The notes under the pieces were generated by a model, which did no database searches, was not told where the DNA came from, and worked only from the letters and a program-made list of their open reading frames with translations. A stretch of 64,000 nt of DNA from Eledone cirrhosa (Eukaryota), in assembly GCA_964016885.1 (NCBI GenBank), contig OZ024744.1, positions 6,200,001-6,264,000 on the forward strand, written 5' to 3'. Below are positions 1-61,471 of this stretch, in pieces. A program made the position numbers and the translations under genes. How positions within the stretch are numbered: position 1 is the stretch's first letter; the number at the start of each line of letters is the position of its first letter.

Positions 1-179
1 GTCCAACAGCGCCGTCGGGCGCTGGACAGACGTACCGGTTAAATTGCTAGGGGTCTGGTTCGGTCCAGACCTCCAGACGGACAAAAACTGGGACGAGGTG
101 ACGAGCAGGGTGGCTTCTCTCACCCAGAAATGGGCCGAGAGGAAGCTATCCCTGAAAGGTCGAGCGGAGGTGGCTAACG
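1..179 (+). mobile_element. Fragment of Tx1-like LINE family A (ORF2, post-RT region), copy A0
   Basis: Near-identical to 8416-8594 (LLGVWFGPDLQTDKNWDEVTSRVASLTQKWAERKLSLKGRAEVAN). Breaks off at 179 into the Dong-1 3' UTR. Confidence 0.9.
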
Positions 180-3100
180 TCAAGAGACAACAAGGTCCGC
201 CATGTTCAAGAAAGAACATACATATTCACACATGCATCCTTAGTGTTTAGACTTGTGATGTACTTATATTAACAGGATCTTCCTTAGTATATGGGCAGTT
301 CCCATTATTACAATCTTTTGTATTTCTCCTATACGCGGGTTTCCTGGGATTTGCGATAAGTAGTCGTTAGACCCCTTAGGTATCATTCCCAGAGCGCCTA
401 CAACCACTGATATCGTTTTAGTTCTCAATTTCCACATTTTTCCAATTTCTATCTCCAGGTCCTTATACTTGCTCAATTTTTCAAATTTTTTTATAGATAC
501 ATTCTTGTCTATTGGAACAGACATATCAATTAGCAGGCATACCCTCCTTTGAAAGTCCTTCAATATTATATCAGGTCTATTTGCATCTATTTTTCGGTCT
601 GTTTGGATGCTAAATTTCCACAAGATTGAGATGTGATCTTTTTCAAGTATGGGAGGTGGTTGATGCTCCCACCAATTCTTTTGATGGGGCAGGTCAAAAT
701 GCTTACACATTATCCAATGTATGTATTGTGCAGCTCTGTCATGCCTGTTTAGGTATTCGGTTGGAGCTATAGGACTGCACATTGAAATGATATGGTCAAT
801 GGTCTCTGGTTGTTTTTTGCATACACGGCATAATGGGCTGCACCCATTTTTTATTATGTTGGCTTGGTAATTTTTTGTTGGCAGACACTGATCTTGTGCC
901 GATATAATCAGTCCTTCAGTCTCCGATTTCAGTCCAGAGGATGCCAACCACTGATGGGTTAACGTTTTGTTAACATCAGGATTGTTAGCTCGCTCTGGGT
1001 ATTTTCCATACAGAGGCTTTTCTTGCCATTTCTTAGCCAGTTTCTGTAGCAGTTCTTTCTTTGCAGTTACTTTTACCTGCTTTGCTTTTTCTGTGTTTTC
1101 CATTTCAGCAGTAAATGGGACTTCTGAAATTTGTAGTCCATTACTGTATCTTTGTGCATCTTTTGTAATGGAATATGATCTTTTGGTGTTTTCGTGTTTC
1201 AAAACGAGTTTGATCATCCAATCATGTGATTCCCTTAGATATGTGGATAATCCAATTGTTGCAGTTTTCAACGCAATGTCTAACTGGATTAACCCACGTC
1301 CTCCTTCTTTCCTAGGAAGATATATTCTATCTATGTCTGCCTTAGGGTGATGCATTCTGTGCATGGTTAAGAATTTTCGGATTTTTGTATCGAGCCTACG
1401 GATCTCTGTGCTTGACCAGTTGATGACATTGTAACTGTAGGTTACTACTGGTATGGCAAGCGTGTTTATGGCATCGATCCTATTCCTTGCATTCAATTCC
1501 GTTCTTAAGATTGCTCTGACTCTGCGGTAACATTCCTTCCTTATCCTTTCCCTCATTGTCGAGTGCTTGATTCCGTCTCCTTCACAAACACCTAGATATT
1601 TGTAAGTTTTTTCTTGATCAAGCTCACTTATCACGTTCCCCCGATCAAGATTAATGTCTGAACTCTTCAGCAGCTTTCCTCTGGTGAACGTTGCTTTGGC
1701 GCATTTATCCAGTCCAAACTCCATTTTAATGTCATCACTGAACTGCTTCACAGTGGATCATAGCCCTTGCAATTGTTCATCATTTTTTGCAAATAGTTTC
1801 AGGTCATCCATGTAGAACAGGTGATTAATGGTTTTGTCATAGACTCTATATCCATGTTTTGTTTCATTGAGCATTTTACTTAATGGTATAAGTGCGATGC
1901 AGAATAAAAGCGGTGATAAAGAGTCACCCTGAAAAATTCCACAATTAATGTTAACTTCTCCAGCTTCCAGTGATTTTTTTTTCACTATTCAAAAGGAGTG
2001 TCGTTCTCCATGTCCTCATACTGAATGACAAAAATCTCCTGACAACGGGGGATATTTTGAAAATCTCTAAACATTTTTCAATCCAACTGTGTGGCAAACT
2101 ATCGAATGCTTTTTTTATAATCTATCCAAGCAATCGATAGATTTTTGTGTCTATTATGACAATCTTCCAGTATCATTTTGTTAACCAGAAGCTGATCCTT
2201 ACAGCCATATGTGCCTCGTTTACACCCTTTCTGCTCAATGGGAAATAGGTCATTTGTTATCAGGTGGTCATATGTGTATTCAGTTAGGACTGATGTTAAA
2301 ATTTTATACATTGTGGTCAAGCAGGTTATCGGTCTGTAATTTTTGGGATTGTTTGTCTCATCATTCTTCGGTAGAAGGAATGTAATGCCGTTAACTAGCC
2401 ATGATGGTATCTTTTCTGGCTCCTTAACTATTTCATTGTAAAGTTGGTCTAACAGCTCATGAGACTCTGTGAAGGCATTTATCCAAAAGTTTTGTATTTT
2501 GTCTTTTCTTGGGGATTTCCATTTGCTGGTTTTTCTTAGAGCCAAGCGCAGCTGTTCAACTGTTATATTTTCCCATGTTTGTTCTTCAAGGTGATCTGTT
2601 TCTTTCATTTGTCTGTCTATCCATGGGGCATGTATGTTATGAAATTTTTCTTCGGCCCAGATCTTTTCCCAGTATTCTTGCACTTCCTCCTTGGGTAGTA
2701 TTGATTTAGCAGTTATTGTTGACTTACCAATTTTTCTGTAGAAGTTTCTTTGGTTGCTTTTGAACATATTATTGTCCTTATAGAATCTAGATCGTTTTTC
2801 AAAGCGCCTTATACGAGCAGCTTTGGCCGACACTTTTTGCTTGATTGTTTCTATCAGCATGTCTATGTCACATGTTGATCTTATACTGTACTATTTTTTC
2901 AATTTTCTAAGTTTAGTTTGTTTAACATGTTCACCTACTTTATAGTTTGTTAAAATTTCTATGTCAGATCGGAGAAGGTTTATTTGGCGTTTGATGTTAT
3001 CTTGCCAAGTAGATTTCTTGTGGGAATTCCTTTGTTTTTTCATCTTCACTCCACATAAGGGAGTGGTGACATTACCCGATGCATAATAGAGATGATTTAA

Positions 3101-3915
3101 GTCAGTAATGTTTAGTTTGAATTATGATGATAATGTTTTTGAGAATTGTGTTAGTCTTGTGTATTATCTTTTGGTTCTGTTTGGAGTTCTGGATCTTAGG
3201 GAGGGTGTCTCGTTGCCCCATGTCAAATTCTTTCATTTTCATCCATTCGATCATAATTTCATCCTTCAAGTTGGCAAGTTCATTCTCATTCATTTCTTTA
3301 TCATTTACGATCTCATTATTTTCATTTGGAGTTTCATCCTGAGCATGCACTCCCTCCACTTTTTCGCTCCTTTCTTTAATTTGTTCTGTTGCCAGTGATT
3401 CCGCCCCAACCCTGGGATTCGAAATGTTACAGTTTACCTCGTTTTCACTGACACATGCTTCATATTTCCATCGCTGACTTTGTGCTACTAGCTTGATCTG
3501 ATCAATTTCTATATCAGTTAGTAACTTTTTTCTTACAATATTTCTTCGTATATTGGCTAGTTTGTTACTGTCAATATAGCCTCTGTTTTCGGAATGTTTC
3601 TTTTTCCAGTTGATATATGTTTGTTCTGTATTCGATGTATTTGATGGGTAGTACATGGCAGTGTAGAAAGCCTCAAGGACTTCTTTATTATCTTCCCTTG
3701 ACCATTTTTCTCTCTTTTTCTTTGGATTTCTTGGTGGTGAGCATAGAGGGCCAACAGTAGGAGTATTCCGGTTATGGGAGGTCTCCAACTCCGAAGTGAT
3801 GGGAAGGTTTGAACCATTAGCTGATTTTTCGACCCCAGTCTGGTTCCTCTCTGAGGGACGCGGCCCTTTTTTACCCGGGTGACGGCCGATCCGGTATGAG
3901 ATTTTATCATTAGAC

Positions 3916-3920
<5 letters not shown>
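180..3920 (-). mobile_element. R4/Dong-like non-LTR retrotransposon family 1, copy a
   Basis: ORF pieces carry RT motifs (NYRPITC, EQKGC, GIFQGDSLSP, FYMDD), CRVC..H..C knuckle and RPD..D..K RLE motif. The 5' end abuts (TAA)n. The 3' tip is deleted. Confidence 0.92.
264..3917 (-). pseudogene. Dong-1a RT-RLE ORF, broken by stops and frameshifts
   Basis: ORF track pieces 3102-3917, 2099-2860, 1758-1985 and 264-1751 are collinear with the longer ORFs of copies b and c. Confidence 0.9.

Positions 3921-3955
<35 letters not shown>
3918..3955. repeat. (TTA)n microsatellite separating head-to-head Dong-1a and Tx1-A1
   Basis: Read directly from the sequence. Confidence 0.97.
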
Positions 3956-4333
3956 GGCTACCTACGTAGGAAATCGTATTATCGTGAGCTCCGCAAAGGT
4001 TTGTTATTTCCGTTTGTTTAAAAATTGCCATTTATGGAAAATGTTATTGTAAACTGTTTATAAGCACACATACATTGTTTTCCGAAAAGGACACCAAAAA
4101 GATTGGGGCCTTGTGCCCAAAATATTAACTTTTATTATTATCCAAAAATTTCTTTGAAAAAAAATGGCTAATTCCCCTCTGCACGAAGCAGCTGAAAGCC
4201 TTCCTCACAAAATAACACCTCTCACCGACACCACCATTGTAAATGTTACTACGTTTGCCAACACAAAAAAAATATAAGCAGTAGCAATATTTTAAATTTG
4301 TCTCAGGCAGACATTCATTTCCCGCCATTACCA

Positions 4334-6174
4334 ATGACTGCAGGTGTTAAAGCCTCCACCACCACCACCACCGCGACAACCACCTCCCCCACCACCACCG
4401 CGACTACAGAAACAAAATAAAAAAAAAATAAATTAACTCGTGATGTCGAAATGAAATCAAGCAAAATGGACTCTTCCGCACCAAAAACGACTGACGTCAC
4501 CACCACCACAACTGAAACTAAAATTAAGATTAACACAAATAACGATAGCAACAACAACAACAATGACATTATAAAACCGACCCTCAGCTTCGTCATAGTG
4601 GCAAAACAATTCGAAGCGTTCACGGTAACTCAAGAGGATTTAGAAAATGCTAAACAAATGGTAAAGAAAGATGGGTACAGGGTCAGCCTCACCCCCCCAC
4701 CTAATAAAATGGAGCATCGGCGCCTATGCACCGTGTCGTATAGAACAATAAATGTAAAATCGCGCCGAGTGGAACGGGCATCCGAGTCCCAAATCCAAAA
4801 AGCTTTGGGACATGTGTGGGCAAGAAAAACCCACATCAGACGTGGGCAAAAGTATGGAACCGTGGATGTGTTCTTTGAAACACCAGAGGAGGCTAGAGAA
4901 CACTCCATGGCCCCATTAAAAAGTGACGACTTCACACTCGTCCCAAGCTATTGTGGCCAGAGGCTCGTAAAGATCAGGGTGACCCACGTTCCACCGGCCA
5001 TCGAAATTCCCTGGCTAATAGCGGCTGTCCTCGCCGGCATCGAAGCCAACACGAAAATAATAGCAATAGCAAAAGAAAAGCAGGAAAACTGGTCCGGATC
5101 TGGGATGGAGCTCCTAATCCAAGCGGACCAAAAAAGCATTGAGGAGATCCGAGAGGTAATAGACCTCACTGACGGCAGCCACCTCACGGTAATTGTCGAG
5201 GGCAGAAGACCTAGGTGTGTCGTTTGTGGTGAAGGAGCCCACCTAAGGGCTTGCTGCCCTCAGGCTAAAAGGTTGAGGCCACCCCTCCTACCCACCCCAG
5301 TGACACAACCATCAACACCACCAGTAGCAGAGATGGCAGCAACAACTGTAGCAGCAACAACAACTGTAGCAGCAACAACAGAAGCAACTATAACAGCAAC
5401 AACCCCAGCAACAGTAGCAAAACCAACACCACTACCACCACCAGCAAAACCAACACCACCACCACCCAACGCTTCAGAACTAGCACCAGCGCCTACACCA
5501 TCCACCACACCACAACCAAAACTAACGGCTGTGGAGGATTTTCCACTCCCCGGCCTATCACAACTGGAGACAGATTGTGACGACGAGGAGTGGGAAACGA
5601 TATCCGGAAAAAAAAAAGAAACCAAAAAAGAAAAAATTCTCTTCCTTCCCCCTCCAAAAACAAAATACAGAGGGAAACAAATAAACTAAGAAACAAAAAA
5701 GTTAGGACAGATATGCCACCATCCACACCAGCATCACCAACCCCATCAACCCAAACACCAACACCATCACCATCAGTAACTCCAACACCACCATCACCTA
5801 CATCACAAAAGTCACCAAAATGCGAAACAGAAACAAACCCACAACAAACGCAAACAAAACAAAACAACCAAAACGATACACACTACACAGCATTAAATTT
5901 GAACAACAAGCAATTATTACACTACATCCAACACAACACCAGTATCACAGAAAAAGACTACACAACAACCCCAAAATTCACACCACCTTCACACATACAA
6001 ATCACTCGCATCACACAGAAAACGTACATGACACTAAAACAAAAATTCCCCAAAGACATCGGAGACTTCCGACAAGCACTCTCCAGGAGGATTTATAAGG
6101 ACATCCTTCCTGAGGAGGCCACAAGCAGTGAAAAGGATGGAAAAACCGTCCTTCCCCTACGAGAAGTAAGGTAA
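4334..6174 (+). pseudogene. Tx1-A1 ORF1 (gag-like, CX2CX4HX4C knuckle, Pro/Thr-rich); one nonsense codon and one A-run frameshift
   Basis: MTAGVKA start shared with A2 and A3. Knuckle CVVCGEGAHLRACC. TAA at ~4418 where A2 has GAA. Pieces 4451-5689 and 5590-6174. Confidence 0.85.
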
Positions 6175-6208
6175 GTGGTCTTTCCCATCTTTTCCACTCC
6201 TTTTCAAC

Positions 6209-9200
6209 ATGACCTCACTCAGAATAGGCAGCATAAATGCGCGTGGCTTGGGGTCGTCATGGAAGCAGGGCCACCTGCTCAACGACCTCAGGTCACTAAA
6301 CATAGATGTAGTGGCCATCAGCGAGACCAGAATCCCCGAGGCACAGGCTTTCGCACCGATTTTCGGTGGCTACGATGTGTACGCATCTCCCAGCCGTCCG
6401 GGATCGGGGGGAGGAGTTGCTGTGCTTTTTCGGAGAGGTTTGGATCTTGCCATACGGGCCATCTTCCTGGACCCAGAGGGTAAGTTGGTGGTGCTGGACG
6501 TGACCAGCGGAGACGGGCAAGCTTTCAGGTTAGTGGCCGTCTATGCCCCGACAGGAGTAGGGCGGCCTGATTTCTTCCGGCGTCTGGAGACTTTTCTTGG
6601 AACGTCCCGCTCTTTAGTGTTAGTGGGCGACTGGAACGGGATCTTAGATGCACGCTGGGATTGTGTGGGATTAGTGGATAGGAAAGGAGGGTGCAAAAGT
6701 CCCACCAACCTGCTCAGACGTTTTGAACTGTCTGACAGGTACCGAATGGATTTCCCGAATGTACCAATGTGGACTTGGACAAATCGCATAGGGTCATCCA
6801 GATCATATCTAGATAGAGTATTTTGTAGGGAAATAGATAAGTCTAGCATAGGCTGTCCACAATTAAAAATAGTCAGCTACACGGACCACAAATTCGTGAT
6901 CTGTGTGCTTGACTTAGATAGGCTTCATAGGCGAGGACCCGGCTACTGGAAGCTAAACGCGTCCTTACCAGCGCGCAAGGCCTACAGAGACCGGATTAGC
7001 GAACTAGTTAAGCGGGCGCTGACGAGGGCCATCGTCAACAACAAGTGGTGGTTTTCTCTGAAAAGAGCAATTAGAATAGAGTCCATTAGGTTTAGTAAGA
7101 CTTTAGCAATAGAGAAAAATAGAGCAGAGGGAGAACTAGTTAGAAAATTAGATGAGGCGCTTAGCAAAGGCATCGCGACCGACGTGCTTGCGGCGAAATT
7201 GGCCCTTGACCAATTCTTCAATGCAAAGCACGAAGGCTGCGTTGTCAGAGCTAGGGTGCGTGCTCTCAGACACGAGGAGACGAAAGCCGTTCAATGGGCC
7301 CGAGTGGCGGAGGCGCGTCGTGGCAACAAAGCCACGATCCGGTCTTTGGTGGACCACGACGGGCGCATGCTACTCGACCCCGGGCAAATGTGTGAAGCTT
7401 TTCAGCGACACTTCGCTCAACTGTTCGGGGGCAGTGGCGGGCCGGATCGAGGGATGGACTTTAGTGTCTACCTCGACGGACTGCCGCGGCTTTCGGCCAC
7501 TGAGGCGGAGTGTTGCGAAAAGCCGATAACAACCGCTGAAGTACGGGATGCAATGACTAGTTGCACAAGGGGTAAATCGCCTGGTTTGGATGGTCTGCCC
7601 TATGAACTTTACGTACAAATGCCAAACTTGTTCGGAGGCCTCTTGGCGGACGTCTACTGCAACTGGCAACAGAACGGGAGAATTCCCAGCTCTGTGAGCC
7701 GAGGAGCGGTGGCGCTGCTGAGAAAGGATCCGAACAAGGGGGATAACATAGATAATTTTAGGCCCATAACTCTGCTAAACACAGAGTTCAAGATTTTGGC
7801 CAAGGTGCTAGCAAAGAGGTTGGCGCTTGTCGTTGGTGGTCTGGTGGGAGAGGCACAGACATGCGCCATTCTCGACAGATCCATCCACGACAACCTCCAC
7901 CTCATGCGATACATCGTAGAGAGGGTAGCTAGGGAACCTGGCACGGGTGGGTCTTTGATCAATTTAGATCAGTCGAAAGCCTTCGATAGGGTCGACCATC
8001 GTTACCTAGAGGCAGTCCTGAGGGCGGCTGGCTTTGGGCCCGTCTTCAGAGGCTGGATCGCTGCCATGCACAGCAACATCTGCTCTGTAGTGAGAGTGAA
8101 CGGTCACCTTTCGGAACCGTTCAACATCATGCGCTCGGTCCCCCAAGGATGTCCCCTCTCGTCCCTATTGTACGTATTGACTCTCGAGCCATTACTGCAC
8201 AAACTGGAGACGTTGAGGGGGGTCCCGCGCGAACTAGGATGCGGAAGATCCGTGTCAGCATATGCCGACGATGTCACCGTAGTGGTGTCGAACGCCAAAC
8301 ACATCGAGGCGATCGGCACTACACTAAGAGAATACGAAGCGGTGACAGGAGCAATGATCAACCAGGAAAAGTCAGTGGGCCTGCAGCTCGGCACCTGGAG
8401 AGGCAGGTCCATGCCGTCCAACAGCGTCGTCGGGCGCTGGACGGACGGACCGGTTAAATTGCTAGGGGTCTGGTTCGGTCCAGACCTCCAGACGGACAAA
8501 AACTGGGACGAGGTGACGAGCAGGGTGGCTTCTCTCACCCAGAAATGGGCCGAGAGGAAGCTATCCCTGAAAGGTCGAGCGGAGGTGGCGAATGCGTACA
8601 TCGCATCCGTCATCTACTACCGCCTGACCGTCGTACCTTGTCCTAAGCCCCGCCTGACTGCGCTGGAGCGTTTGCTCTTTCGCTTCTTGTGGAAGGGACG
8701 CGCTCCGATGGTCAGGCGGTCCATCTGCTGTCAACACCCGCTACGTGGAGGGCTGGGCATGCCGTGGCTGATGATGCGCAGACACGCGCTCAGGCTACGA
8801 CATCTCCACCTCTTCCTCGACGGTGATCAGGTGTGGTCGCCGTTTGCTAGACACGTTTTTCCCCAGCTCGTCTCCTTGACGGAGCTGCAGTCCTGGGTCA
8901 AGCGAAGACCGAGAGGGAGCGCTTGGAGACTGGAATGTCTTCAGGCGCTCACAGCCCTCGACCAATCGGGCAATGTGATCGGTGGAAACTCCACCTTGGC
9001 GTTCTATAGGGGATTAGTGGAGGGGAAGAGCGACGACGTACTTGGAGAAACTCTAGGCGTCGACGAAAATCAACTAGTCAATCTCTTCGGAAGGACTTTC
9101 GGGCCGGGGCCTATGGACAACTTCCAGAAATCCCTGGCCTGGCAGTGCTACCGGGGAGCTTTGCCAGTTCGGGATAAACTCTACAGGCATGGAGGTGCCG

Positions 9201-9628
9201 TCAGCCGGGCATGTCCGAGATGCGCGCAGGGCGACGAAACCGTCCTGCACGCACTCGTCCAGTATCCGAGCATTGCTGACTTGTGGGTTTATGTCGAACA
9301 CCTGCTGTCACGTGTAGGACGGATCCAGCTATCAGCTGAGTCAATCGTGAGGATTGCCCCGCCCTCTTCCTTTAGCCGGGAAGGGCAGGCAGTTTTTATC
9401 TGTCTGGTGGCCATGGCGAAAGAGATAGTATGGTGGACACGTTTGAAAGGGCTGAAGACGAGCACTTACCTCTTCGGTGATGCCCTGATTAACTTTTTCA
9501 AATTTCATCTGAAAAGGAAAATCAGGGTAGAGAGGGAAGTGCTCTCTTCCCAGCATTTTGTTGAAAGATGGGTGAGAGAAGCAAGTATGGCCCGAATGAA
9601 TGGGCCTTCTCTGAGTATGTGTCTGTAA
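6209..9628 (+). CDS. Tx1-A1 ORF2: APE endonuclease, reverse transcriptase and C-terminal Cys motif (1139 aa, open)
   Basis: APE motifs SINARGL, ISET, VGDWN, SYLD, YTDH. GPGYWKLN. RT motifs KSPGLDG, FRPITLLN, LDQSKAFD, QGCPLS, AYADD. C-terminal CPRC..ET..H. Confidence 0.95.
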   Translation: MTSLRIGSINARGLGSSWKQGHLLNDLRSLNIDVVAISETRIPEAQAFAPIFGGYDVYASPSRPGSGGGVAVLFRRGLDLAIRAIFLDPEGKLVVLDVTSGDGQAFRLVAVYAPTGVGRPDFFRRLETFLGTSRSLVLVGDWNGILDARWDCVGLVDRKGGCKSPTNLLRRFELSDRYRMDFPNVPMWTWTNRIGSSRSYLDRVFCREIDKSSIGCPQLKIVSYTDHKFVICVLDLDRLHRRGPGYWKLNASLPARKAYRDRISELVKRALTRAIVNNKWWFSLKRAIRIESIRFSKTLAIEKNRAEGELVRKLDEALSKGIATDVLAAKLALDQFFNAKHEGCVVRARVRALRHEETKAVQWARVAEARRGNKATIRSLVDHDGRMLLDPGQMCEAFQRHFAQLFGGSGGPDRGMDFSVYLDGLPRLSATEAECCEKPITTAEVRDAMTSCTRGKSPGLDGLPYELYVQMPNLFGGLLADVYCNWQQNGRIPSSVSRGAVALLRKDPNKGDNIDNFRPITLLNTEFKILAKVLAKRLALVVGGLVGEAQTCAILDRSIHDNLHLMRYIVERVAREPGTGGSLINLDQSKAFDRVDHRYLEAVLRAAGFGPVFRGWIAAMHSNICSVVRVNGHLSEPFNIMRSVPQGCPLSSLLYVLTLEPLLHKLETLRGVPRELGCGRSVSAYADDVTVVVSNAKHIEAIGTTLREYEAVTGAMINQEKSVGLQLGTWRGRSMPSNSVVGRWTDGPVKLLGVWFGPDLQTDKNWDEVTSRVASLTQKWAERKLSLKGRAEVANAYIASVIYYRLTVVPCPKPRLTALERLLFRFLWKGRAPMVRRSICCQHPLRGGLGMPWLMMRRHALRLRHLHLFLDGDQVWSPFARHVFPQLVSLTELQSWVKRRPRGSAWRLECLQALTALDQSGNVIGGNSTLAFYRGLVEGKSDDVLGETLGVDENQLVNLFGRTFGPGPMDNFQKSLAWQCYRGALPVRDKLYRHGGAVSRACPRCAQGDETVLHALVQYPSIADLWVYVEHLLSRVGRIQLSAESIVRIAPPSSFSREGQAVFICLVAMAKEIVWWTRLKGLKTSTYLFGDALINFFKFHLKRKIRVEREVLSSQHFVERWVREASMARMNGPSLSMCL

Positions 9629-9888
9629 ATTAAAGGTGGAAAACTGGGAGAGGGCACTTGCCTTGGTGGTCAGGGTCATTGTGGCTTTTTACTGGGCTTT
9701 CTCCACAAATGTCCCTCCGAAGTCTCCCCCCTATTGGGGAATTTTTCATTGTTATTTTCATTGTTATTTTTGTTACATCCTCTCTTTTTGTTTTTTTACA
9801 CGCAGAAATGCCCATTTGTACCCTCCTGCATTGTCCTGCACTGTCCTTAATGTCTACTTTATGTAAACCCTTGTGGTTAATAAAGAAA

Positions 9889-9890
<2 letters not shown>

Positions 9891-9938
<48 letters not shown>

Positions 9939-9940: not shown

Positions 9941-12900
9941 TATTCCTTGAATCTCAGTCATTGATGTTGGTTAACTGGAAAGTCCGTTGGGTTGAATATC
10001 AAGCCACTACCTGCAGCCTCAGATATTCAGGACGTATCGGAGGATTCTTGCTGTTCCAAGCAAGCATGCCTTTTGAAGCGTTCCAAAAAGCGTGAAGGGG
10101 CCGATTTTCTTTAACCATCCCTGGAAACTTTTGGAGATGGACCCAGTGCGCCTATGACAATCGGGATCACTTTGACTTCATGGCAGTTCCAAATCCTTTT
10201 CACCTCCCACTTTAGGTCCTGGTATCGGTTAATTTTCTCCCTCTCCTTCTCTTGCACTCTCGTGTCGAACGGGCAGGCCACATCCACAATCAGGCACGAT
10301 CTTTTTTCTTTGTCCACAACCACCAGGTCAGGTCTATTGTGTTCCAGTTTTTTGTCCGTCTGTATCCTAAAATCCCACAGCACCTTCACCTGATTGTTCT
10401 CCATCACCGCCTCTGGCCTATGCTCATACCATTTCTCAGAATGTGGTAGATTGTTTACTTTGCACAGGTGCCAGTGGATCACCCTGCCCATCACATCGTG
10501 TCTCCAGCCCTTATAGTGGGTCTGGGCTAGGTGTTTACACTCGGACACAATGTGAGCCACAGTCTCCTCTCTCTCTCCACAGATCCTGCACAGTGGGCTA
10601 GCCTCCTCCTTGTAGATATGGTGCTTCAACCACTTCGTTTTGAGGGCCTGCTCCTGCGCAGCCATTAGCATTCCTTCTGTAGCCTTTTTGAGGTCTCCTC
10701 TTCTCAACCAGTTCCATGTCTGTGGATCTCTAAATTCAGTTTTCTCAAAGAAGGTACTATGAAGGGATTTTCCCTTAAGGCTGCTCTTCCTCCTTGATGT
10801 TATTTCCTCCTTGGACATCCCCTGGCCTACTGTCCCCTCCTTCAGTACAGTTCTGAGCATTGGCTCCTTACTATAGGTCACGTATTTGTATAGGTTGTTT
10901 TTCTCCATCTGAACACAGTCCTCTATGCTGATAAGACCTCTTCCACCCTCAGATCTCCTTAGGTAGAGTCTATCGACATCACTCCTCTTGTGGAACATGT
11001 TGTAGATAGTCAATAGCTTCCTAGTCTTCCTATCCATTTCTTTTTGTTCAGCAACATTCCATCTCAGAATTCCCGCACTGTACCTAATAATAGACACAGC
11101 TCGGGAATTTACTGCGCTTATGGCATTTCTGCTGTTCAGATGTGACTTCAATACGCTCCTTACTCTCCGAATGTATTCAGTTCTTAACAATTCCTTCATT
11201 TTTTTGTTCTTTATGCCATCAGCCTCCAGAACGCCCAAATACTTGTATCCTTCCTCAGAGTCAATTTCCTTTATCATCTCACCTGTTGGTATCTGGATCC
11301 CGTTACTTCTGCTCAACCTACCCCTCTTCATCACAATGACTCCACATTTACCAATACCAAACTGCATACATATATCACTGCTGAAAATACGGACAGTGTC
11401 AACAAGCACATCCAACTCCTTCTCACTTTTCCCGAAGAGCTTAAGATCGTCCATGAAGAGGAGGTGATTGATGGTAAGCTCTTCCCTTCCCAACTTGTAT
11501 CCTGCTCTCACTTTTCGCAGCATAATGGTCAAGGGCATCAGGGCAAGGACAAACAACAGAGGGGACAGGCTATCTCCCTGGAAGATACCTCTCTTGATCT
11601 TCACGCTTCCCAAGGATACTCCAGTTGATGTCAGCTCTGTCTCCCAGGACCCCATACTCCTGCCTAGCAACTGTCTGATGTTATCTGCCACCCTGAAGAT
11701 CTCCAGGCTTTTGGTGATCCAGGAATGAGGCACCATGTCAAATGCCTTTCTGTAGTCTATCCATCCCATGGCAAGATCAGTGTGTCTCCTCCTGCAATTC
11801 CCCATTACCATCTTATCAATAAGCAACTGGTCCTTTGTACCACGTGACTTCTTTCGGCATCCTTTCTGTTCGTCCGGTAACAAGTTGTTTGTGTGGAGGT
11901 GATGGTAGATTTCCTCAGACACAATGCTCGTCAACAGTTTCCACATTACGGGCAGACATGTGATAGGTCTATAGTTGGTAACATCATTACCCTTGATTCG
12001 GTCTTTCATTATCAGAACTGTGGTACCTTTTGTCAACCAATCTGGCACCTCACCCGACACCAAGCAGTCATTGAACATGGCCGTCAGCTTCGGGTGGAGG
12101 GATGTTAAATGTTTAATCCAATACCCCTGCACACCATCTGGGCCTGGTGATTTCCAGTTGGTTAGTTTTTTGGCTTGCCCCTTACGAGTTTCAACTGTGA
12201 TACTCAAATCAGTCTGTTGTTGTGCCTGCTCACCGATCTCCCTCTGTACTGTCTCAATCCACCCTGCCTGGGCATTGTGTCTAACATCCTGCTCCCATAT
12301 TCCTCTCCAGAATGTTTTAGCTTGTTCCGCCCCAGGGATCAAGTCGTTGCCTCTTTCTTTCCCCTCAAGCTGTCCAAACAGCATCTTCTGGTTGTTGTCG
12401 AACATGCGGTTCTGTTTATACTGACTGACTCTGTTCTCGTATCGCCTGATTTTGGCACTCTTTGCTACAATGCGTTGCTTCAATTCCTCTATGATAATAT
12501 TTAGCTTTTTACTCCTAGTTTTGTATTTTATTTCCAGTCTATTTTTAGTGCCTATGTTTTTTAGTGTCCCATTCAGTAGTGACTCAAGCTTTCCTATGTC
12601 GTTTCTCATTTCCCCGATTTGCCCACTCAGTCGCTTCTTCCACCACGGCTCTGCTCTTTCTTGTCTGTTGTTTCCTCTCGCTTTTATACCAAGTAGTTTC
12701 CTCACCGTATTTGCTGTTGCTTTGAGGATATTGTTGCACTGGTGAAGGCTCCTCGCCTCAAGGTATGGGATGACTTTGTTTACCTTAGCTGTTGTTTCTT
12801 TTAACTTTTTCCTGTCTACAAATCTTAGGTTCATAGGTCTCCCACTATCATTGTTCAATTCATCTACCACTAAATTTAGGATGTCAACCGAATCTTGTCC

Positions 12901-13444
12901 TAGCCCGTCAGCATTCATCTCCTCAGTGGCCGTATCTCTGTTCCAGGTATTATTTATCTCAGTATTCAGATCATTGTCTGCTTCGGGTGGTTCCTCCGTT
13001 CTCAGGACCTCCTCACCTTCATTTCCCACCGGCTCGCTTGTCTGGCATACTACACCCGCCATCTCCAAGCCATTCTCTCTGCTCAGTTCCTCCAGTTCCA
13101 GCTCGCTTATCCACCCATTAGTTCTTATTACCCGAGCCTGCCCGGCCAATTTTTGTTCATCTAATTTAAATAAACCAATCTCGTTCCAGATGTTATGCAT
13201 CCGTCTCCTGTAGCCCCTCTCCTTGGGGTTACTTTTCAGGTAGCATTGCATAACAGTTCTATTCAATTCTTTCGTCCAGTTGGTTCTGGCCCCTTTCCTT
13301 CTTCTTCTTCCTCCAACATCAGCAGTATTTGGTTGACAGTCAGGTTCCTGCTGCTGAGCCAGGGGGCACCTGTTGGGTGAGAGTCTGTCACATGACGTTC
13401 TAGTCTCCATTTCACCGTTATTCGAACTGTTTATGTTCGATATT
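9941..13444 (-). mobile_element. R4/Dong-like family 2, copy a (5' UTR truncated about 30 nt before the ATG)
   Basis: Near-identical to copy b. Flanked by TAA repeats on both sides. Confidence 0.93.
10019..13410 (-). pseudogene. Dong-2a RT-RLE ORF, frameshifted about 40 codons before the normal stop
   Basis: Matches 13549-16938 until GALG, then diverges (PSPKVSRDG*) because of an indel near 10140. Confidence 0.88.
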
Positions 13445-13470
13445 ATTATTATTATTATTATTGTTATTGT
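13445..13470. repeat. (TTA)/(TTG) spacer between tandem Dong-2 copies
   Basis: Read directly from the sequence. Confidence 0.95.
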
Positions 13471-16400
13471 TATTCCTTGAATCTCAGTCATTGATGTTGG
13501 TTAACTGGAAAGTCCGTTGGATTGAATATCAAGCCACTACCTGCAGCCTCAGATATTCAGGTCGTATCGGAGGGTTCTTGCTGTTCCAAGCAAGCATGCC
13601 TTTTGAAGCGTTCCAAAAAGCGTGAAGGGGCCGATTTTCTTTAACCATCCCTGGAAACCTTTGGAGATAGTCCCCAGTGCGCCTATGACAATCGGGATCA
13701 CTTTGACTTCATGGCAGTTCCAAATCCTTTTCACCTCCCACTTTAGGTCCTGGTATCGGTTAATTTTCTCCCTCTCCTTCTCTTGCACTCTCGTGTCGAA
13801 CGGGCAGGCCACATCCACAATCAGGCACGATCTTTTTTCTTTGTCCATAACCACCAGGTCAGGTCTATTGTGTTCCAGTTTTTTGTCCGTCTGTATCCTA
13901 AAATCCCACAGCACCTTCACCTGACTGTTCTCCATCACCGCCTCTGGCCTATGCTCATACCATTTCTCAGAATGTGGTAGATTGTTTACTTTGCACAGGT
14001 GCCAGTGGATCACCCTGCCCATCACATCGTGTCTCCAGCCCTTATAGTGGGTCTGGGCTAGGTGTTTACACTCGGACACAATGTGAGCCACAGTCTCCTC
14101 TCTCTCTCCACAGATCCTGCACAGTGGGCTAGCCTCCTCTTTGTAGATATGGTGCTTCAACCACTTCGTTTTGAGGGCCTGCTCCTGCGCAGCCATTAGC
14201 ATTCCTTCTGTAGCCTTTTTGAGGTCTCCTCTTCTCAACCAGTTCCATGTCTGTGGATCTCTAAATTCAGTTTTCTCAAAGAAGGTACTATGAAGGGATT
14301 TTCCCTTAAGGCTGCTCTTCCTCCTTGATGTTATTTCCTCCTTGGTCATCCCCTGGCCTACTGTCCCCTCCTTCAGTACAGTTCTGAGCATTGGCTCCTT
14401 ACTATAGGTCACGTATTTGTATAGGTTGTTTTTCTCCATCTGAACACAGTCCTCTATGCTGATAAGACTTCTTCCACCCTCAGATCTCCTTAGGTAGAGT
14501 CTATCGACATCACTCCTCTTGTGGAACATGTTGTAGATAGTCAATAGCTTCCTAGTCTTCCTATCCATTTCTTTTTGTTCAGCAACATTCCATCTCAGAA
14601 TTCCCGCACTGTACCTAATAATAGACACAGCTCGGGAATTTACTGCGCTTATGGCATTTCTGCTGTTCAGATGTGACTTCAATACGCTCCTTACTCTCCG
14701 AATGTATTCAGTTCTTAACAATTCCTTCATTTTTTTGTTCTTTATGCCATCAGCCTCCAGAACGCCCAAATACTTGTATCCTTCCTCAGAGTCAATTTCC
14801 TTTATCATCTCACCTGTTGGTATCTGGATCCCGTTACTTCTGCTCAACCTACCCCTCTTCATCACAATGACTCCACATTTACCAATACCAAACTGCATAC
14901 ATATATCACTGCTGAAAATACGGACAGTGTCAACAAGCACATCCAACTCCTTCTCACTTTTCCCGAAGAGCTTAAGATCGTCCATGAAGAGGAGGTGATT
15001 GATGGTAAGCTCTTCCCTTCCCAACTTGTATCCTGCTCTCACTTTTCGCAGCATAATGGTCAAGGGCATCAGGGCAAGGACAAACAACAGAGGGGACAGG
15101 CTATCTCCCTGGAAGATACCTCTCTTGATCTTCACGCTTCCCAAGGATACTCCAGTTGATGTCAGCTCTGTCTCCCAGGACCCCATACTCCTGCCTAGCA
15201 ACTGTCTGATGTTATCTGCCACCCTGAAGATCTCCAGGCTTTTGGTGATCCAGGAATGAGGCACCATGTCAAATGCCTTTCTGTAGTCTATCCATCCCAT
15301 GGCAAGATCAGTGTGTCTCCTCCTGCAATTCCCCATTACCATCTTATCAATAAGCAACTGGTCCTTTGTACCACGTGACTTCTTTCGGCATCCTTTCTGT
15401 TCGTCCGGTAACAAGTTGTTTGTGTGGAGGTGATGGTAGATTTCCTCAGACACAATGCTCGTCAACAGTTTCCACATTACGGGCAGATATGTGATAGGTC
15501 TATAGTTGGTAACATCATTACCCTTGATTCGGTCTTTCATTATCAGAACTGTGGTACCTTTTGTCAACCACTCTGGCACCTCACCCGACACCAAGCAGTC
15601 ATTGAACATGGCCGTCAGCTTCGGGTGGAGGGATGTTAAATGTCTAATCCAATACCCCTGCACACCATCTGGGCCTGGTGATTTCCAGTTGGTTAGTTTT
15701 TTGGCTTGCCCCTTAAGAGTTTCAACTGTGATACTCAAATCAGTCTGTTGTTGTGCCTTCTCACCGATCTCCCTCTGTACTGTCTCAATCCACCCTGCCT
15801 GGGCATTGTGTCTAACATCCTGCTCCCATATTCCTCTCCAGAATGTTTTAGCTTGTTCCGCCCCAGGGATCAAGTCGTTGCCTCTTTCTTTCCCCTCAAG
15901 CTGTCCAAACAGCATCTTCTGGTTGTTGTCGAACATGCGGTTCTGTTTATACTGACTGACTCTGTTCTCGTATCGCCAGATTTTGGCACTCTTTGCTACA
16001 ATGCGTTGCTTCAATTCCTCTATGATAATATTTAGCTTTTTACTCCTAGTTTTGTATTTTATTTCCAGTCTATTTTTAGTGCCTATGTTTTTTAGTGTCC
16101 CATTCAGTAGTGACTCAAGCTTTCCTATGTCATTTCTCATTTCCCCGATTTGCCCACTCAGTCGCTTCTTCCACCACGGCTCTGCTCTTTCTTGTCTGTT
16201 GTTTCCTCTCGCTTTTATACCAAGTAGTTTCCTCACCGTATTTGCTGTTGCTTTGAGGATATTGTTGCACTGGTGAAGACTCCTCGCCTCAAGGTATGGG
16301 ATGACTTTGTTTACCTTAGCTGTTGTTTCTTTTAACTTTTTCCTGTCTACAAATCTTAGAGTCATAGGTCTCCCACTATCATTGTTCAATTCATCTACCA

Positions 16401-18020
16401 CTAGATTTAGGATGTCAACCGAATCTTGTCCTAGCCCGTCAGCATTCATCTCCTCAGTGGCCGTATCTCTGTTCCAGGTATTATTTATCTCAGTATTCAG
16501 ATCATTGTCTGCTTCGGGTGGTTCCTCCGTTCTCAGGACCTCCTCACCTTCATTTCCCACCGGCTCGCTTGTCTGGCATACTACACCCGCCATCTCCAAG
16601 CCATTCTCTCTGCTCAGTTCCTCCAGTTCCAGCTCGCTTATCCACCCATTAGTTCTTATTACCCGAGCCTGCCCGGCCAATTTTTGTTCATCTAATTTAA
16701 ATAAACCAATCTCGTTCCAGATGTTATGCATCCGTCTCCTGTAGCCCCTCTCCTTGGGGTTACTTTTCATGTAGCATTGCATAACAGTTCTATTCAATTC
16801 TTTCGTCCAGTTGGTTCTGGCCCCTTTCCTTCTTCTTCCTCCAACATCAGCAGTATTTGGTTGACAGTCAGGTTCCTGCTGCTGAGCCAGGGGGCACCTG
16901 TTGGGTGAGAGTCTGTCACATGACGTTCTAGTCTCCATTTCACCGTTATTCGAACTGTTTATGTTCGATATTTAAACACTCTTATCGAGGATTGGCGAAT
17001 GTATGTTTACATAGCCATCTGTGGATCCGCCATCCCACTTGGCCCTTGTGTGGCATTATCACCACGCTGTATACGAACACACATAAACAAACAAACACAC
17101 GGGCAGAAAGGGCCCCAAAAATGAATAAGCATAAGTTTCATTGTAATGTAGTATTCGAATGTCTGACTTAGTTTTTGTTTTTTAAGTTTTACTTTTTCCC
17201 CCCTCTTCTCTGTCCGTCCGCCTGCTTCTCTCTTCATTCTTATTTTCTTTACGTTTTTGGGGTTTCTTTTTTTGTTTTTGTTTTTCTCTGTTTGTTTTTC
17301 TCGTTTTTTGCTGTTGTTGCTGTGCTGCTTTGGTTTTGTTGTTTGTTTTTTCTTTTTTCTTTTGAGTCTATCTATATATTTTGATGCCTTCCTCTTTGTT
17401 AGTAGTAGGGATTCTATAATGTGGAAGTAGTAGCAGCCAGCAGGGAGAATTGGGAGGCTGGCGGCGCTGGCGATACTGAGACAGTGGTGGTGGTGATGTC
17501 GATACCGAGGCAGTGGTGGCGGTGATGCGACCGTATTACTGTAGTGATGGTGCTGTAGCGGTGGCAGCAGCAGTGAAGGAGTCAAGGGGTGGTGGCGGCG
17601 GTGATGGGATAGTGGTGGTAATGATGGCCGTAGTGAGCGGTGGCGGTGAAGGTGAAAATGCTGTTGTGTTTAGTGTACACAGATGATGGGGTGGGTGGTG
17701 TATCTAGTTTCTGGTGTTAGTGAGTTTAGCTGTCCTATATAGTGTAGCCAGAGGAGAGGAGGGGGGGGGGGGGTTCTTCTTCTTCCATTTATAGCCATTT
17801 TTGGGGGGGGATATACAGTGTACAATACAAAGTTGAATATTTGAATATTTGAGCCTTATACCAATATATTTTGGGTCCGAATTTTTTGGGGCTCAAGCCG
17901 GGTGCTTTACGTAGCATTTGTACTAAGAGTTGTTATTTCACAAATGATTTAAATATGTTAAAAATTCAAAACTTACGGGAGCGATTTCATGACCTCCGTC
18001 ACCTTGTGCGTCTTCTTCCC
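13471..18020 (-). mobile_element. R4/Dong-like family 2, copy b, probably full-length with a ~1.08 kb 5' UTR
   Basis: Intact ORF. Sequence continues upstream without a TAA tract until the one at 18021. The 5' boundary is inferred from that tract only. Confidence 0.8.
13549..16938 (-). CDS. Dong-2b single ORF: RT, CCHC knuckle and restriction-like endonuclease (1129 aa, intact)
   Basis: WKSPGPDG, NYRPIT, EQKGC, WIDYRKAFD, GIFQGDSLSP, FMDD, KYLG, CRICGEREETVAHIVSEC, RHD, RPD..DV.CP..EK..RY. Confidence 0.95.
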   Translation of the reverse strand: METRTSCDRLSPNRCPLAQQQEPDCQPNTADVGGRRRKGARTNWTKELNRTVMQCYMKSNPKERGYRRRMHNIWNEIGLFKLDEQKLAGQARVIRTNGWISELELEELSRENGLEMAGVVCQTSEPVGNEGEEVLRTEEPPEADNDLNTEINNTWNRDTATEEMNADGLGQDSVDILNLVVDELNNDSGRPMTLRFVDRKKLKETTAKVNKVIPYLEARSLHQCNNILKATANTVRKLLGIKARGNNRQERAEPWWKKRLSGQIGEMRNDIGKLESLLNGTLKNIGTKNRLEIKYKTRSKKLNIIIEELKQRIVAKSAKIWRYENRVSQYKQNRMFDNNQKMLFGQLEGKERGNDLIPGAEQAKTFWRGIWEQDVRHNAQAGWIETVQREIGEKAQQQTDLSITVETLKGQAKKLTNWKSPGPDGVQGYWIRHLTSLHPKLTAMFNDCLVSGEVPEWLTKGTTVLIMKDRIKGNDVTNYRPITYLPVMWKLLTSIVSEEIYHHLHTNNLLPDEQKGCRKKSRGTKDQLLIDKMVMGNCRRRHTDLAMGWIDYRKAFDMVPHSWITKSLEIFRVADNIRQLLGRSMGSWETELTSTGVSLGSVKIKRGIFQGDSLSPLLFVLALMPLTIMLRKVRAGYKLGREELTINHLLFMDDLKLFGKSEKELDVLVDTVRIFSSDICMQFGIGKCGVIVMKRGRLSRSNGIQIPTGEMIKEIDSEEGYKYLGVLEADGIKNKKMKELLRTEYIRRVRSVLKSHLNSRNAISAVNSRAVSIIRYSAGILRWNVAEQKEMDRKTRKLLTIYNMFHKRSDVDRLYLRRSEGGRSLISIEDCVQMEKNNLYKYVTYSKEPMLRTVLKEGTVGQGMTKEEITSRRKSSLKGKSLHSTFFEKTEFRDPQTWNWLRRGDLKKATEGMLMAAQEQALKTKWLKHHIYKEEASPLCRICGEREETVAHIVSECKHLAQTHYKGWRHDVMGRVIHWHLCKVNNLPHSEKWYEHRPEAVMENSQVKVLWDFRIQTDKKLEHNRPDLVVMDKEKRSCLIVDVACPFDTRVQEKEREKINRYQDLKWEVKRIWNCHEVKVIPIVIGALGTISKGFQGWLKKIGPFTLFGTLQKACLLGTARTLRYDLNI

Positions 18021-18044
18021 TTATTATTATTATTATTATTATTA
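18021..18044. repeat. (TTA)n at the 3' end of Dong-1b
   Basis: Read directly from the sequence. Confidence 0.96.
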
Positions 18045-21000
18045 CAGTTGCATTTATCTTGCTTTATGTTCATACGAGTCATCACCAAGTCACAACCAGT
18101 GACCTCAAGAGACAACAAGGTCCGCCATGTTCAAGAAAGAACATACATATTCACACATGCATCTTTAGTGTTTAGACTTGTGATGTACTTATATTGACAG
18201 AATCTTCCTTAGTATATGGGCAGTTCCCAATAATACTATCTTTTGTATTTCTCCTATACGCGGGTTTCCTGGGATTTGCGATATGTAATCATTAGACCCC
18301 TTAGGTATCATTCCCAGAGCGCCTACAACCACTGGTATTGTTTTAGTTCTCAATTTCCACATTTTTCCAATTTCTATCTCCAGGTCCTTATACTTGCTCA
18401 ATTTTTCAAATGTTTTTATAGATACGTTCTTGTCTATTGGAACAGACATATCAATTAGCAGGCATACCCTCTTTTGAAAGTCTTTCAATATTATATCAGG
18501 TCTGTTTGCATCTATTTTTCGGTCTGTTTGGATGCTAAAGTTCCACAAGATTGAGATGTGATCTTTTTCAAGTATGGGAGGTGGTTGATGCTCCCACCAA
18601 TTCTTTTGATGGGGCAGGTCAAAATGCTTACACATTATCCAATGTATGTATTGTGCAGCTCTGTCATGCCTGTTTAGGTATTCGGTTGGAGCTATAGGAC
18701 TGCACATTGAAATTATATGGTCAATGGTCTCTGGTTGTTTTTTGCATACACGGCATAATGGGCTGCACCCATTTTTTATTATGTTGGCTTGGTAATTTTT
18801 TGTTGGCAGACACTGATCTTGTGCCGATATAATCAGTCCTTCAGTCTCCGATTTCAGTCCAGAGGATGCCAACCACTGATGGGTTAAAGTTTTGTCAACA
18901 TCAGGATTGTTAGCTCGCTCTGGGTATTTTCCATACAGAGGCTTTTCTTGCCATTTCTTAGCCAGTTTGTGTAGCAGTTCTTTCTTTGCAGTTACTTTTA
19001 CCTGCTTTGCTTTTTCTGCGTTTTCCATTTCAGCAGTAAATGGGACTTATGAAATTTGTAGTCCATTACTGTATCTTTGTGCATCTTTTGTAATGGAATA
19101 TGATCTTTTGGTGCTTTCGTGTTTCAAAACGAGTTTGATCATCCAATCATGTGATTCCCTTAGATATGTGGATAATCCAATTGTTGCAGTTTTCAACGCA
19201 ATGTCTAACTGGATTAACCCACGTCCTCCTTCTTTCCTAGGGAGATATATTCTATCTATGTCTGCCTTAGGGTGATGCATTCTGTGCATGGTTAAGAATT
19301 TTCGGATTTTTGTATCGAGCCTACGGATCTCTGTGCTTGACCAGTTGATGACATTGTAACTGTAGGTTACTACTGGTATGGCAAGCGTGTTTATGGCATC
19401 GATCCTATTCCTTGCATTCAATTCCGTTCTTAAGATTGCTCTGACTCTGCGGTAACATTCCTTCCTTATCCTTTCCCTCATTGTCGAGTGCTTGATTCCG
19501 TCTCCTTCACAAACACCTAGATATTTGTAAGTTTGTTCTTGATCAAGCTCTCTTATCACGTTCCCCCGATCAAGATTAATGTCTGAACTCTTCAGCAGCT
19601 TTCCTCTGGTGAACGTTGCTTTGGCGCATTTATCCAGTCCAAACTCCATTTTAATGTCATCACTGAACTGCTTCACAGTGGATAATAGCCCTTGCAATTG
19701 TTCATCATTTTTTGCAAATAGTTTCAGGTCATCCATGTAGAACAGGTGATTAATGGTTTTGTCATAGACTCTATATCCATGTTTTGTTTCATTGAGCATT
19801 TTACTTAATGGTATAAGTGCGATGCAGAATAAAAGCGGTGATAAAGAGTCACCCTGAAAAATTCCACAATTAATGTTAACTTCTCCAGCTTCCAGTGATT
19901 TTGTTTCACTATTCAAAAGGAGTATCGTTCTCCATGTCCTCATACTGAATGACAAAAACCTCCTGACAACGGGGGATATTTTGAAAATCTCTAAACATTT
20001 TTCAATCCAACTGTGTGGCAAACTATCAAATGCTTTTTTATAATCTATCCAAGCAATCGATAGATTTTTGTGTCTATTATGACAATCTTCCAGTATCATT
20101 TTGTTAACCAGAAGCTGATCCTTACAACCATATGAGCCTCGTTTACACCCTTTCTGCTCAATGGGAAATAGGTCATTTGTTATCAGGTGGTCATATGTGT
20201 ATTCAGTTAGGACTGATGTTAAAATTTTATACATTGTGGTCAAGCAGGTTATCGGTCTGTAATTTTGGGGATTGTTTGTCTCATCATTCTTCGTTAGCAG
20301 GAATGTAATGCCGTTAACTAGCCATGATGGTATCTTTTCTGGCTCCTTAACTATTTCATTGTAAAGTTGGGCTAACAGCTCATGAGACTCTGTGAAGGCA
20401 TTTATCCAAAAGTTTTGTATTTTGTCTTTTCCTGGGGATTTCCATTTGCTGGTTTTTCTTAGAGCCAAGCGCAGCTGTTCAACTGTTATATTTTCCCATG
20501 TTTGTTCTTCAAGGTGATCTGTTTCTTTCATTTGTCTGTCTATCCATGGGGCATGTATGTTATGAACTTTTTCTTCGGCCCAGATCTTTTCCCAGAATTC
20601 TTGCACTTCCTCCTTGGGTGGTATTGATTTAGCAGTTATTGTTGACTTACCAATTTTTCTGTAGAAGTTTCTTTGGTTGTTTTTGAACATATTATTGTCC
20701 TCATAGAATCTAGATCGTTTTTCAAAGCGCCTTATACGAGCAGCTTTGGCCGACACTTTTTGCTTGATTGTTTCTATCAGCATGTCTATGTCACATGTTG
20801 ATCTTATACTGTACTTTTTTTTCAATTTTCTAAGTTTAGTTTGTTTAACATGTTCACCTACTTTATAGTTTGTTAAAATTTCTATGTCAGATCGGAGAAG
20901 GTTTATTTGGCGATTGATGTTATCTTGCCAAGTAGATTTCTTGTGGGAATTCCTTTGTTTTTTCATCTTCACTCCACATAAGTGAGTGGTGACTTTAGCC

Positions 21001-21194
21001 GATGCATAATAGAGATGATTTAAATCAGTAATGTTTAGTTTGTTTGTGATGATAATGTTTTTGAGAATTATGTTAGTCTTGTGTATTATCTTTTGGTTCT
21101 GTTTGGAGTTCTGGATCTTAGGGAAGGTGTCTCGTTGCCCCATGTCAGATTCTTTCATTTTCATCCATTCGATCATAATTTCATCCTTCAAGTT
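18045..21194 (-). mobile_element. Dong-1 copy b, 5'-truncated; ORF 18189-21194 with one nonsense codon at 19047
   Basis: ORFs 19047-21203 and 18189-19028 are in the same frame. Similarity to copy a ends at ~21194. Confidence 0.92.
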
Positions 21195-21457: not shown

Positions 21458-21612
<155 letters not shown>

Positions 21613-34784: not shown

Positions 34785-34867
<83 letters not shown>

Positions 34868-34895
34868 TAATAATAATAATAAGAAGAAGAAGAAG
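34785..34895. repeat. (TAA)n followed by (AAG)5, between head-to-head Tx1-A2 and Dong-1c
   Basis: Read directly from the sequence. Confidence 0.96.
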
Positions 34896-45349: not shown

Positions 45350-45414
45350 ATATTAATATGTCAATATAACAGTGAAAGTGCATGGCTTAATTGTTAGGGG
45401 TATATAGATAGATA

Positions 45415-49689: not shown

Positions 49690-49697
49690 AGGGGTAT

Positions 49698-49723
49698 ATA
49701 GATAGATAGATAGATAGATAGAT
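49698..49723. repeat. (GATA)n spacer
   Basis: Read directly from the sequence. Confidence 0.96.
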
Positions 49724-50555: not shown

Positions 50556-50591
50556 GATAGATAAATAGATAGATAGATAGATAGATAGATA
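50556..50591. repeat. (GATA)n spacer
   Basis: Read directly from the sequence. Confidence 0.96.

Positions 50592-61440: not shown

Positions 61441-61471
<31 letters not shown>

Follow-up and report, generated by a model that had tools for sequence, protein, structure and literature searches.

Long interspersed nuclear elements (LINEs) need far more of their ORF1 protein (ORF1p) than of their ORF2 protein (ORF2p) and copy mainly their own RNA, and the means by which they do so are only partly understood. The window, that is, the whole stretch of DNA analysed here, comprises 64,000 nucleotides (nt) of the Eledone cirrhosa genome (GenBank assembly GCA_964016885.1, contig OZ024744.1, positions 6,200,001 to 6,264,000) and holds two-gene elements in which the end of the first open reading frame (ORF) coincides with a consensus 5' splice site. 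Their sequences place these elements among the L1-group LINEs, with Tx1-like targeting. Why should such an element carry a splice donor between its two genes? A preliminary description had answered that the whole of ORF2 is an intron, with its donor on the ORF1 stop and its acceptor on the ORF2 stop. We found that the donor is conserved across divergent families and that it lies in one arm of a predicted long-range helix, missed in the preliminary description, which covers both splice sites. Splicing across ORF2 is proposed tentatively.

A conserved splice donor at the end of ORF1

Copy A1, recognised by its sequence and by self-alignment, is full length (3956-9895, forward strand) and lies in an (ATT)n run. 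Its ORF1 (4165-6174), frameshifted in this copy, ends in ...LPLREVR*, and its ORF2 (6209-9628) encodes 1139 amino acids with the apurinic/apyrimidinic (AP) endonuclease, reverse transcriptase and zinc finger domains recognised by Pfam. The TAA stop of ORF1 forms positions +2 to +4 of the donor AG|GTAAGT (6169-6176), which is the 5' splice-site consensus. On the reverse strand the same motif stands in A2 (32573; 32568-32575), A3 (42455; 42450-42457) and B2 (59942; 59937-59944), with GG|GTAAGT in B1 (54193; 54188-54195), 28 nt upstream of the ORF2 ATG (54165), and AG|GTAGGT in copy C (49070; 49065-49072). All six donors read as the preliminary description had given them.

For a wider comparison, 15 representatives with both ends were picked from the genome, in groups at 68-88% ORF2 identity, and nine divergent groups were compared for the donor (family H for the donor only, its 3' end not being included). 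In the donor-anchored alignment, G-1, G+1, T+2 and T+6 were conserved in 9/9 groups and positions -2, +3, +4 and +5 in 8/9, as against 3-7/9 groups at the flanking bases. The proposal that the GT would prove better conserved than its neighbours was thus borne out. The variants seen (GTAAGT, GTGAGT, GTAGGT and GTAATT) are all U1-compatible, and the donor core stays constant while the length of the spacer varies from 27 to 52 nt among groups. Elsewhere in the 15 elements the donor pattern is rare, with only 12 further occurrences in 80,051 nt.

Moreover, the donor is kept in two reading frames. It is in phase 2, with the ORF1 stop at +2 to +4, in families A, B, C, D and H, and in phase 1, with ORF1 ending in GK* or GE*, in E, F and G and, by homology, in E2 and F2. 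Copy C had been singled out for its different donor phase; this is true of that copy, through a private 1-nt deletion upstream, but not of its family, in which ORF1 of the other copies terminates with AG|G TAG, as it does in A and B. Together, these patterns indicate that a U1-type donor at the end of ORF1 is under selection, regardless of reading frame. ORF1 relatives were also found under the names Octopus sinensis, O. bimaculoides, O. vulgaris and Argonauta hians; among the relatives found elsewhere, P0070 ends in GK* and P0066 in GKS*, which fits G|GT AAG.

Some variation was noted at the donor and near the 5' end. Three A-group copies (L127, L128 and L129) have G at both +3 and +4, the donors seen being two GTGGGT and one GTGGCT, and inversions with breakpoints at or beside the donor occur in the A-group copies L001/L130 and L132. 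Near its 5' end, B1 contains a second GTAAGT followed by a U-rich stretch and TTGTAG (56099-56165, reverse strand), an intron-like arrangement. In B, D, E and A2 (L016, L035, L089, L090 and L092) an additional GTAAG(T/G) stands about 30 nt inside the 5' end, with about 70 U-rich bases and TAG after it; A, C and F lack this motif or have it in changed form.

A predicted family-specific helix brackets ORF2

The junction arm of each representative (donor -15 to AUG +6) was paired against every 70-nt window of its own element. The best-pairing window lay at the ORF2 stop in 15/15 representatives, with energies of -43 to -62 kcal/mol and z-scores of -3.1 to -6.1 relative to 426-528 other windows. 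In A1, the predicted 5' arm (6156-6214) contains the end of ORF1, the donor, a pyrimidine spacer and the ORF2 AUG, and the predicted 3' arm (9621-9675) contains the ORF2 stop, the purine-rich start of the 3' untranslated region (UTR) and CACTTGCC, which is complementary to the donor. This duplex, at -51.9 kcal/mol (z -4.6 against 525 other windows), is also present in the minimum-energy fold of 3.7 kb. The joint fold beats the local folds by 8-36 kcal/mol in all 15 representatives, and folds of 3.7 kb contained 39-54 long-range pairs in 3/3 cases.

We found that the complementarity is family-specific and co-varies across 3.4 kb. Among eight groups, own-family pairing averaged -56.1 kcal/mol and cross-family pairing -40.1 kcal/mol, the own-family assignment being the best of 40,320 permutations; in two further sets of seven groups it was the best of 5,040 permutations each. 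In the B group, a copy often pairs equally well, or better, with a sister subfamily than with itself (row ranks up to 10/15). On these predictions it is very probable that the ORF1/ORF2 junction forms a long-range helix with the ORF2 stop and the start of the 3' UTR. The arms, 3.4 kb apart, bracket ORF2, which becomes the looped-out region, and in most representatives the helix puts the AUG opposite the ORF2 stop. The donor core is fully covered by the helix in A, D and F and partly open in B, E, E2 and G.

Could the helix account for everything? It might be purely translational or serve packaging, by way of restart at the ORF2 AUG or as a full-length mark for the reverse transcriptase, with the donor-like sequence arising as a by-product of stop context and pairing. 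The placing of the AUG fits such a role, termination followed by restart is described for SART1 and L1 (PMC5972666, the part available), and the pairing largely explains the letters on the acceptor side. It does not explain the invariant donor, since GGTRRGT persists in both reading frames, even where its core is free of pairing (B, E, E2 and G), and the flanks, though paired, vary freely. We therefore consider a helix of this kind alone improbable. Chance, or inheritance without selection, is barely credible: all groups share one ancestor and RNA support is lacking, but the flanks and the spacer have changed where the donor core has not, and the complementarity over 3.4 kb is specific to each family. 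For the donor and the helix it can be rejected; only the acceptor, taken by itself, may be owed to it.

The B and C 3' arms (50810-50840 and 56430-56455, reverse strand) can also form a local hairpin, GGAGCAC...GTGCTCC, which is an alternative to the helix and possibly a switch.

Candidate acceptors at the end of ORF2

On the acceptor side, the ORF2 stop is itself TAG in 13/15 representatives, and in four copies on the reverse strand it reads as a candidate acceptor within a 3' helix arm: TAG|G TGA in B1 (50858; 50810-50865, the arm placed by homology with the tested copy L037), TAG|G TAG in B2 (56478; 56430-56485), TAG|G TAA in C (45632; 45585-45639, by homology with L080) and TAG|GT TGA in D (49957; 49905-49964). 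In A the stop is TAA, and the motif is AAG|G (9635; 9633-9636 on the forward strand in A1), within the 3' helix arm. These five motifs agree with the preliminary description, as does the lack of an immediate stop in D, a 5'-truncated copy whose family donor is AG|GTAAGT in phase 2. A phase-1 donor had been predicted for D from its GT TGA and was ruled out by that phase-2 donor.

By a simple ad hoc score, 11/13 non-A representatives have the ORF2-stop AG among the four best of their about 250-280 AGs. In all five phase-1 representatives splicing would restore a stop no more than two codons past the junction, though the two preceding bases vary. Overall this would hold for 8/15, compared with about 2 under a shuffle null and about 5 under a null that keeps purines and pyrimidines, the representatives being related to one another.

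Several parts of the earlier argument for this acceptor did not hold. Not every ORF2 ends in a pyrimidine-rich stretch, the A site having just 9/19 pyrimidines. The three different stops that follow the acceptor G (TGA, TAG and TAA) had been offered as evidence; they belong to the set of four G|TRR codons, whose remaining member, TGG, is found too, in B2-type copies (L033, L035 and L081, TAG|GTGG) and in A. They are not independent evidence, because the purine-rich arm pairs with the spacer (the purine/pyrimidine-keeping null gives about 0.38 each). Conservation on this side is confounded with the stop codon and with helix pairing. The claim that both sites are conserved across divergent families stands for the donor, whose G|GT core is invariant in nine groups, and is uncertain for the acceptor, which is much weaker than the donor and has been lost in A, the largest family.

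Family A has a strong candidate acceptor of its own further downstream, a T-rich tract ending in ACACGCAG| (9790-9805, forward strand), which would add 20 codons to ORF1. Its AG at 9805 holds the joint top rank of 263 AGs and is present in 53 of the 73 A copies with both ends, out of 80 copies fetched and chosen for an intact donor. No AG was found at the place aligned with this site in F2, G or D. The distal AG may replace the lost TAG, which would be one event only.

Observations that weigh against splicing

The reading frame gives a first set of objections. That splicing would rebuild the ORF1 terminus, as had been claimed, is true of 3/10 phase-2 representatives, the number that would regain a stop, and fails in the A, D and B2-type lineages, which would gain tails of 28-105 codons or no stop; as a conserved design it is not supported. 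Among the 61 A copies scored at the AAG|G site, 15 had no stop in 110 codons. As we read a midpoint-rooted tree, it has three shifts to phase 2, and a matching stop accompanies only one of them. Four full ORF1 relatives have a tail past the C-terminal domain, and in two of these (P0064 and P0121) the end is not GK.

The acceptor letters themselves give a second. The A-site AAG|G had been called the weaker acceptor, and it ranks 62 of 263 AGs by the same ad hoc score on top of its poor pyrimidine content. In 8/15 representatives the acceptor is preceded, 7 nt upstream, by another AG. Moreover, the G+1 and T+2 that follow the ORF2 stop are accounted for by their pairing with the CCAAC ahead of the AUG, without recourse to splicing. 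In the helix arms of the 80 donor-intact A copies no excess of A>G changes was found (4/1,680 against 206/56,016, P 0.54), and thus no footprint of the editing at which the GTGGGT and GTGGCT donors had hinted.

The third is the lack of spliced copies. A genome search for ORF1-plus-3' UTR retrocopies with the exact junction, whose absence the preliminary description had itself counted against an intron, found no precisely spliced copy of A, B, C, D or F by pattern matching, E and G being outside the search. For A, none of 19 atypical matches was spliced (1+9+9, with one locus twice), beside 3,054 intact junctions; this search left out continuations beginning with G followed by a base other than T, or with GTA. 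The atypical matches were small indels, point changes, inversions and one microhomology deletion. For B, there were no spliced copies from the donor side, beside 1,427 intact junctions, and the two matches of the B1 acceptor-side search were both unspliced (L136 judged from its matched letters only). The C search gave one mutated donor on the donor side and nothing on the acceptor side, the D search one unspliced copy of another family and the F search no match, intact totals being uncounted for these three. Likewise, the 5' UTR GTAAGT...TAG of B was removed in none of the copies matched genome-wide, beside 784 intact. The lack of spliced copies is not decisive, because an RNA without ORF2 would need copying in trans. 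However, Tx1 elements can mobilise other RNAs in trans, and some spliced copies might therefore be expected.

As to RNA, no donor-to-acceptor joint was present among the joints listed (15 of 585 on A1 in four runs and 15 of 21 on 45390-60250 in run X4), and these runs are not on record as RNA. In run X4 the depth of the 3' UTR was well above that of ORF2; contig depth cannot rank parts of an element and gives no evidence either way. P0070 is a complete ORF1 of 603 amino acids on a contig of 2,209 nt, a length compatible with an RNA of ORF1 alone; the protein, however, ends in GK*, which belongs to the unspliced phase-1 form, and the case is ambiguous.

Two other uses of the donor can be considered. 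In the first, U1 binds without splicing: the donor would serve to bring in U1, which would promote transcription or prevent premature polyadenylation, the 3' arm would then evict U1 to allow polyadenylation and export, and the helix would also limit ORF2 translation. Such a scheme, for which U1 has a precedent in a second role in the copia element EVD (PMC5580714, in the portion available), accounts for the perfect A donor without a matching acceptor, for the lack of spliced copies and for the never-removed 5'-end GTAAGT of B, with its like motifs in D, E and A2, and it fits the pairing of the 3' arm across the donor core in A, D and F. It gives U1 little downstream to guard, since ORF2 has just 0-2 AATAAA/ATTAAA sites, and it leaves unexplained both the top-ranking AG at the ORF2 stop and the in-frame stops in 5/5 phase-1 representatives. 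We regard it as the chief rival to the reading favoured below, unlikely though with substance.

The second is a mini-intron from the donor to an AG in the fifth codon of ORF2 (L-R-V/I-G), which would yield an in-frame ORF1-ORF2 fusion. In A and B the donor's phase matches that of the AG within the Arg codon AGA, and the spacer is pyrimidine-rich, but the length would be only about 42-52 nt, the Arg codon of D is CGA and in the phase-1 families the two ORFs would not be joined in frame. Nine non-GT continuations included no A copy of this kind, though ORF2 would stay in cis. We consider a mini-intron very improbable.

A proposed helix-gated choice between two RNAs

The idea of ORF2 as an intron thus stands in part: the selected U1-type donor and the high-ranking ORF2-stop AG in 11/13 non-A representatives speak for it, and the failure to find a spliced genomic copy speaks against it. 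The reading that we favour, at somewhat less than even chances, is a helix-gated choice between a spliced ORF1-only RNA and a locked full-length RNA. U1 would bind the donor while ORF2 is still being transcribed, and in some transcripts the donor would be spliced to an acceptor located on the ORF2 stop or beyond it, in A probably to the distal one at 9805. The resulting ORF1-only mRNA would supply the RNA-binding protein needed in excess. In other transcripts the 3' arm would pair first, hide the donor and lock the full-length RNA; a ribosome reaching the end of ORF1 would unwind the 5' arm and could then reinitiate 23-48 nt away, on the AUG of ORF2. Full-length RNA alone would then make ORF2p and hold the whole helix, so that it alone would be copied.

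A further-reaching claim, possible but in our view unlikely, is that the whole reverse-transcriptase gene is a regulated intron, in which the contest between helix and U1 sets the ratio of ORF1p to ORF2p and the helix marks full-length RNA as the only template for copying. The helix could serve as such a mark because splicing would destroy it. If true, the regulated-intron reading would give an RNA-structural basis for cis preference. In any of these forms, a conserved U1 site within a co-varying, ORF2-bracketing helix offers a precise and mutable handle on the ORF1p:ORF2p ratio and on the copying of an element's own RNA, in a very large and young group of elements. If splicing occurs, it would be a LINE counterpart of the gag-only RNA of copia; if it does not, an intron-less element would be recruiting U1 and then hiding the site.

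Relation to known systems

Tx1-clade LINEs have been described as Kibi, Koshi and crocodilian Tx1 and as the L1-Tx1 families of Octopus vulgaris (PMC4494074, PMC13282606). In the available portions of these papers they are alike in having two ORFs, an L1-group ORF2 with AP endonuclease, reverse transcriptase and zinc finger, and insertion into microsatellites, while the targets of the present elements are (ATT)n and (TCTA)n. The string 'splic' never occurs in the text of PMC13282606 to the extent available, and PMC4494074, in its accessible part, states only the principle of partnership with short interspersed nuclear elements. In the literature as covered by titles and the starts of abstracts, with few subscription papers or Repbase reports included, no description was found, for Tx1-type LINEs, of a donor conserved at the end of ORF1 or of a helix that brackets ORF2.

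The closest parallels lie elsewhere. In the Ty1/Copia shGAG system (Arabidopsis EVD), as far as PMC5580714 was available, the structural gene likewise has a conserved U1-type donor close to its end, with a spliced short RNA for the abundant protein and unspliced RNA as the genome, and U1 also blocks early termination. That system, shown experimentally, belongs to an element with long terminal repeats (LTRs) and uses a short intron followed by early polyadenylation; the elements described here are non-LTR and could only work in a similar manner, their intron would be the whole 3.4-kb enzyme gene, they have a predicted co-varying helix, and their splicing is a proposal. The human L1 SpIREs also involve splice sites within LINE RNA; by the available portion of PMC5860796, these lose parts of the 5' UTR and ORF1 and retain ORF2, and they are dead ends that account for about 2% of full-length copies, whereas no spliced copy was found in the present elements. 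Termination-reinitiation in SART1 and L1, in what was available of PMC5972666, resembles the present case in that ORF2 starts just past the ORF1 stop and SART1 needs RNA structure. There, however, the structure is local and downstream of the stop-start site, and here the partner lies 3.4 kb away.

Pairing over such a distance has a parallel in plant viruses. In tombusviruses and barley yellow dwarf virus (BYDV), readthrough or frameshifting is controlled by pairing between an upstream stop and a stretch of the 3' UTR several kilobases away. Stop-codon readthrough from ORF1 to ORF2 was ruled out as a conserved design of the present elements, in which the two frames agree only in B1/B2, C and H.

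Elements and genomic setting

In the Pfam assignment of ORF2, Exo_endo_phos is the N-terminal AP endonuclease, RVT_1 the reverse transcriptase and zf-RVT the C-terminal zinc finger. Against solved structures the best match was human L1 ORF2p (E 2e-49, residues 5-855), with R2 at 8e-21. The ORF1 alignment contains C-x2-C-x4-H-x4-C, to which Pfam zf-CCHC gave a weak match in 3/6 ORF1s (best E 0.0036). The elements end in AATAAA, at 9879-9884 in A1 (forward strand), where this polyadenylation signal stands ahead of the (ATT)n run. Among the copies inspected, without a genome-wide count, A and E lie beside (ATT)n and B, C and D beside (TCTA)n-type repeats. A degenerate ORF2-start pattern gave 9,330 matches across the 3.0-Gb genome, and many A and D copies are 99% identical to one another. 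A metagenome scan did not find DNA around relatives in other species, and searches with ORF1 words added nothing.

Copies C, D, B1 and B2 (45400-61900, reverse strand) form a head-to-tail array with a short (TCTA)n run at each joint, as expected from repeated insertion into the same microsatellite. A tandem pair of single-ORF reverse-transcriptase elements, 99% identical (10111-13500 and 13549-16971, reverse strand), lies in the (ATT)n tail of A1; these have a C-terminal zinc finger and a PD..D-type nuclease motif and are presumably of the Dong/R4 type. Another reverse-transcriptase element is present in three copies at 96-98% identity (177-3928, 18023-21194 and 34822-38709), with a C-terminal nuclease-like motif, and adjoins (ATT)n runs. 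Finally, a long (TA)n run at 21459-21612 appears as a palindrome in self-alignment.

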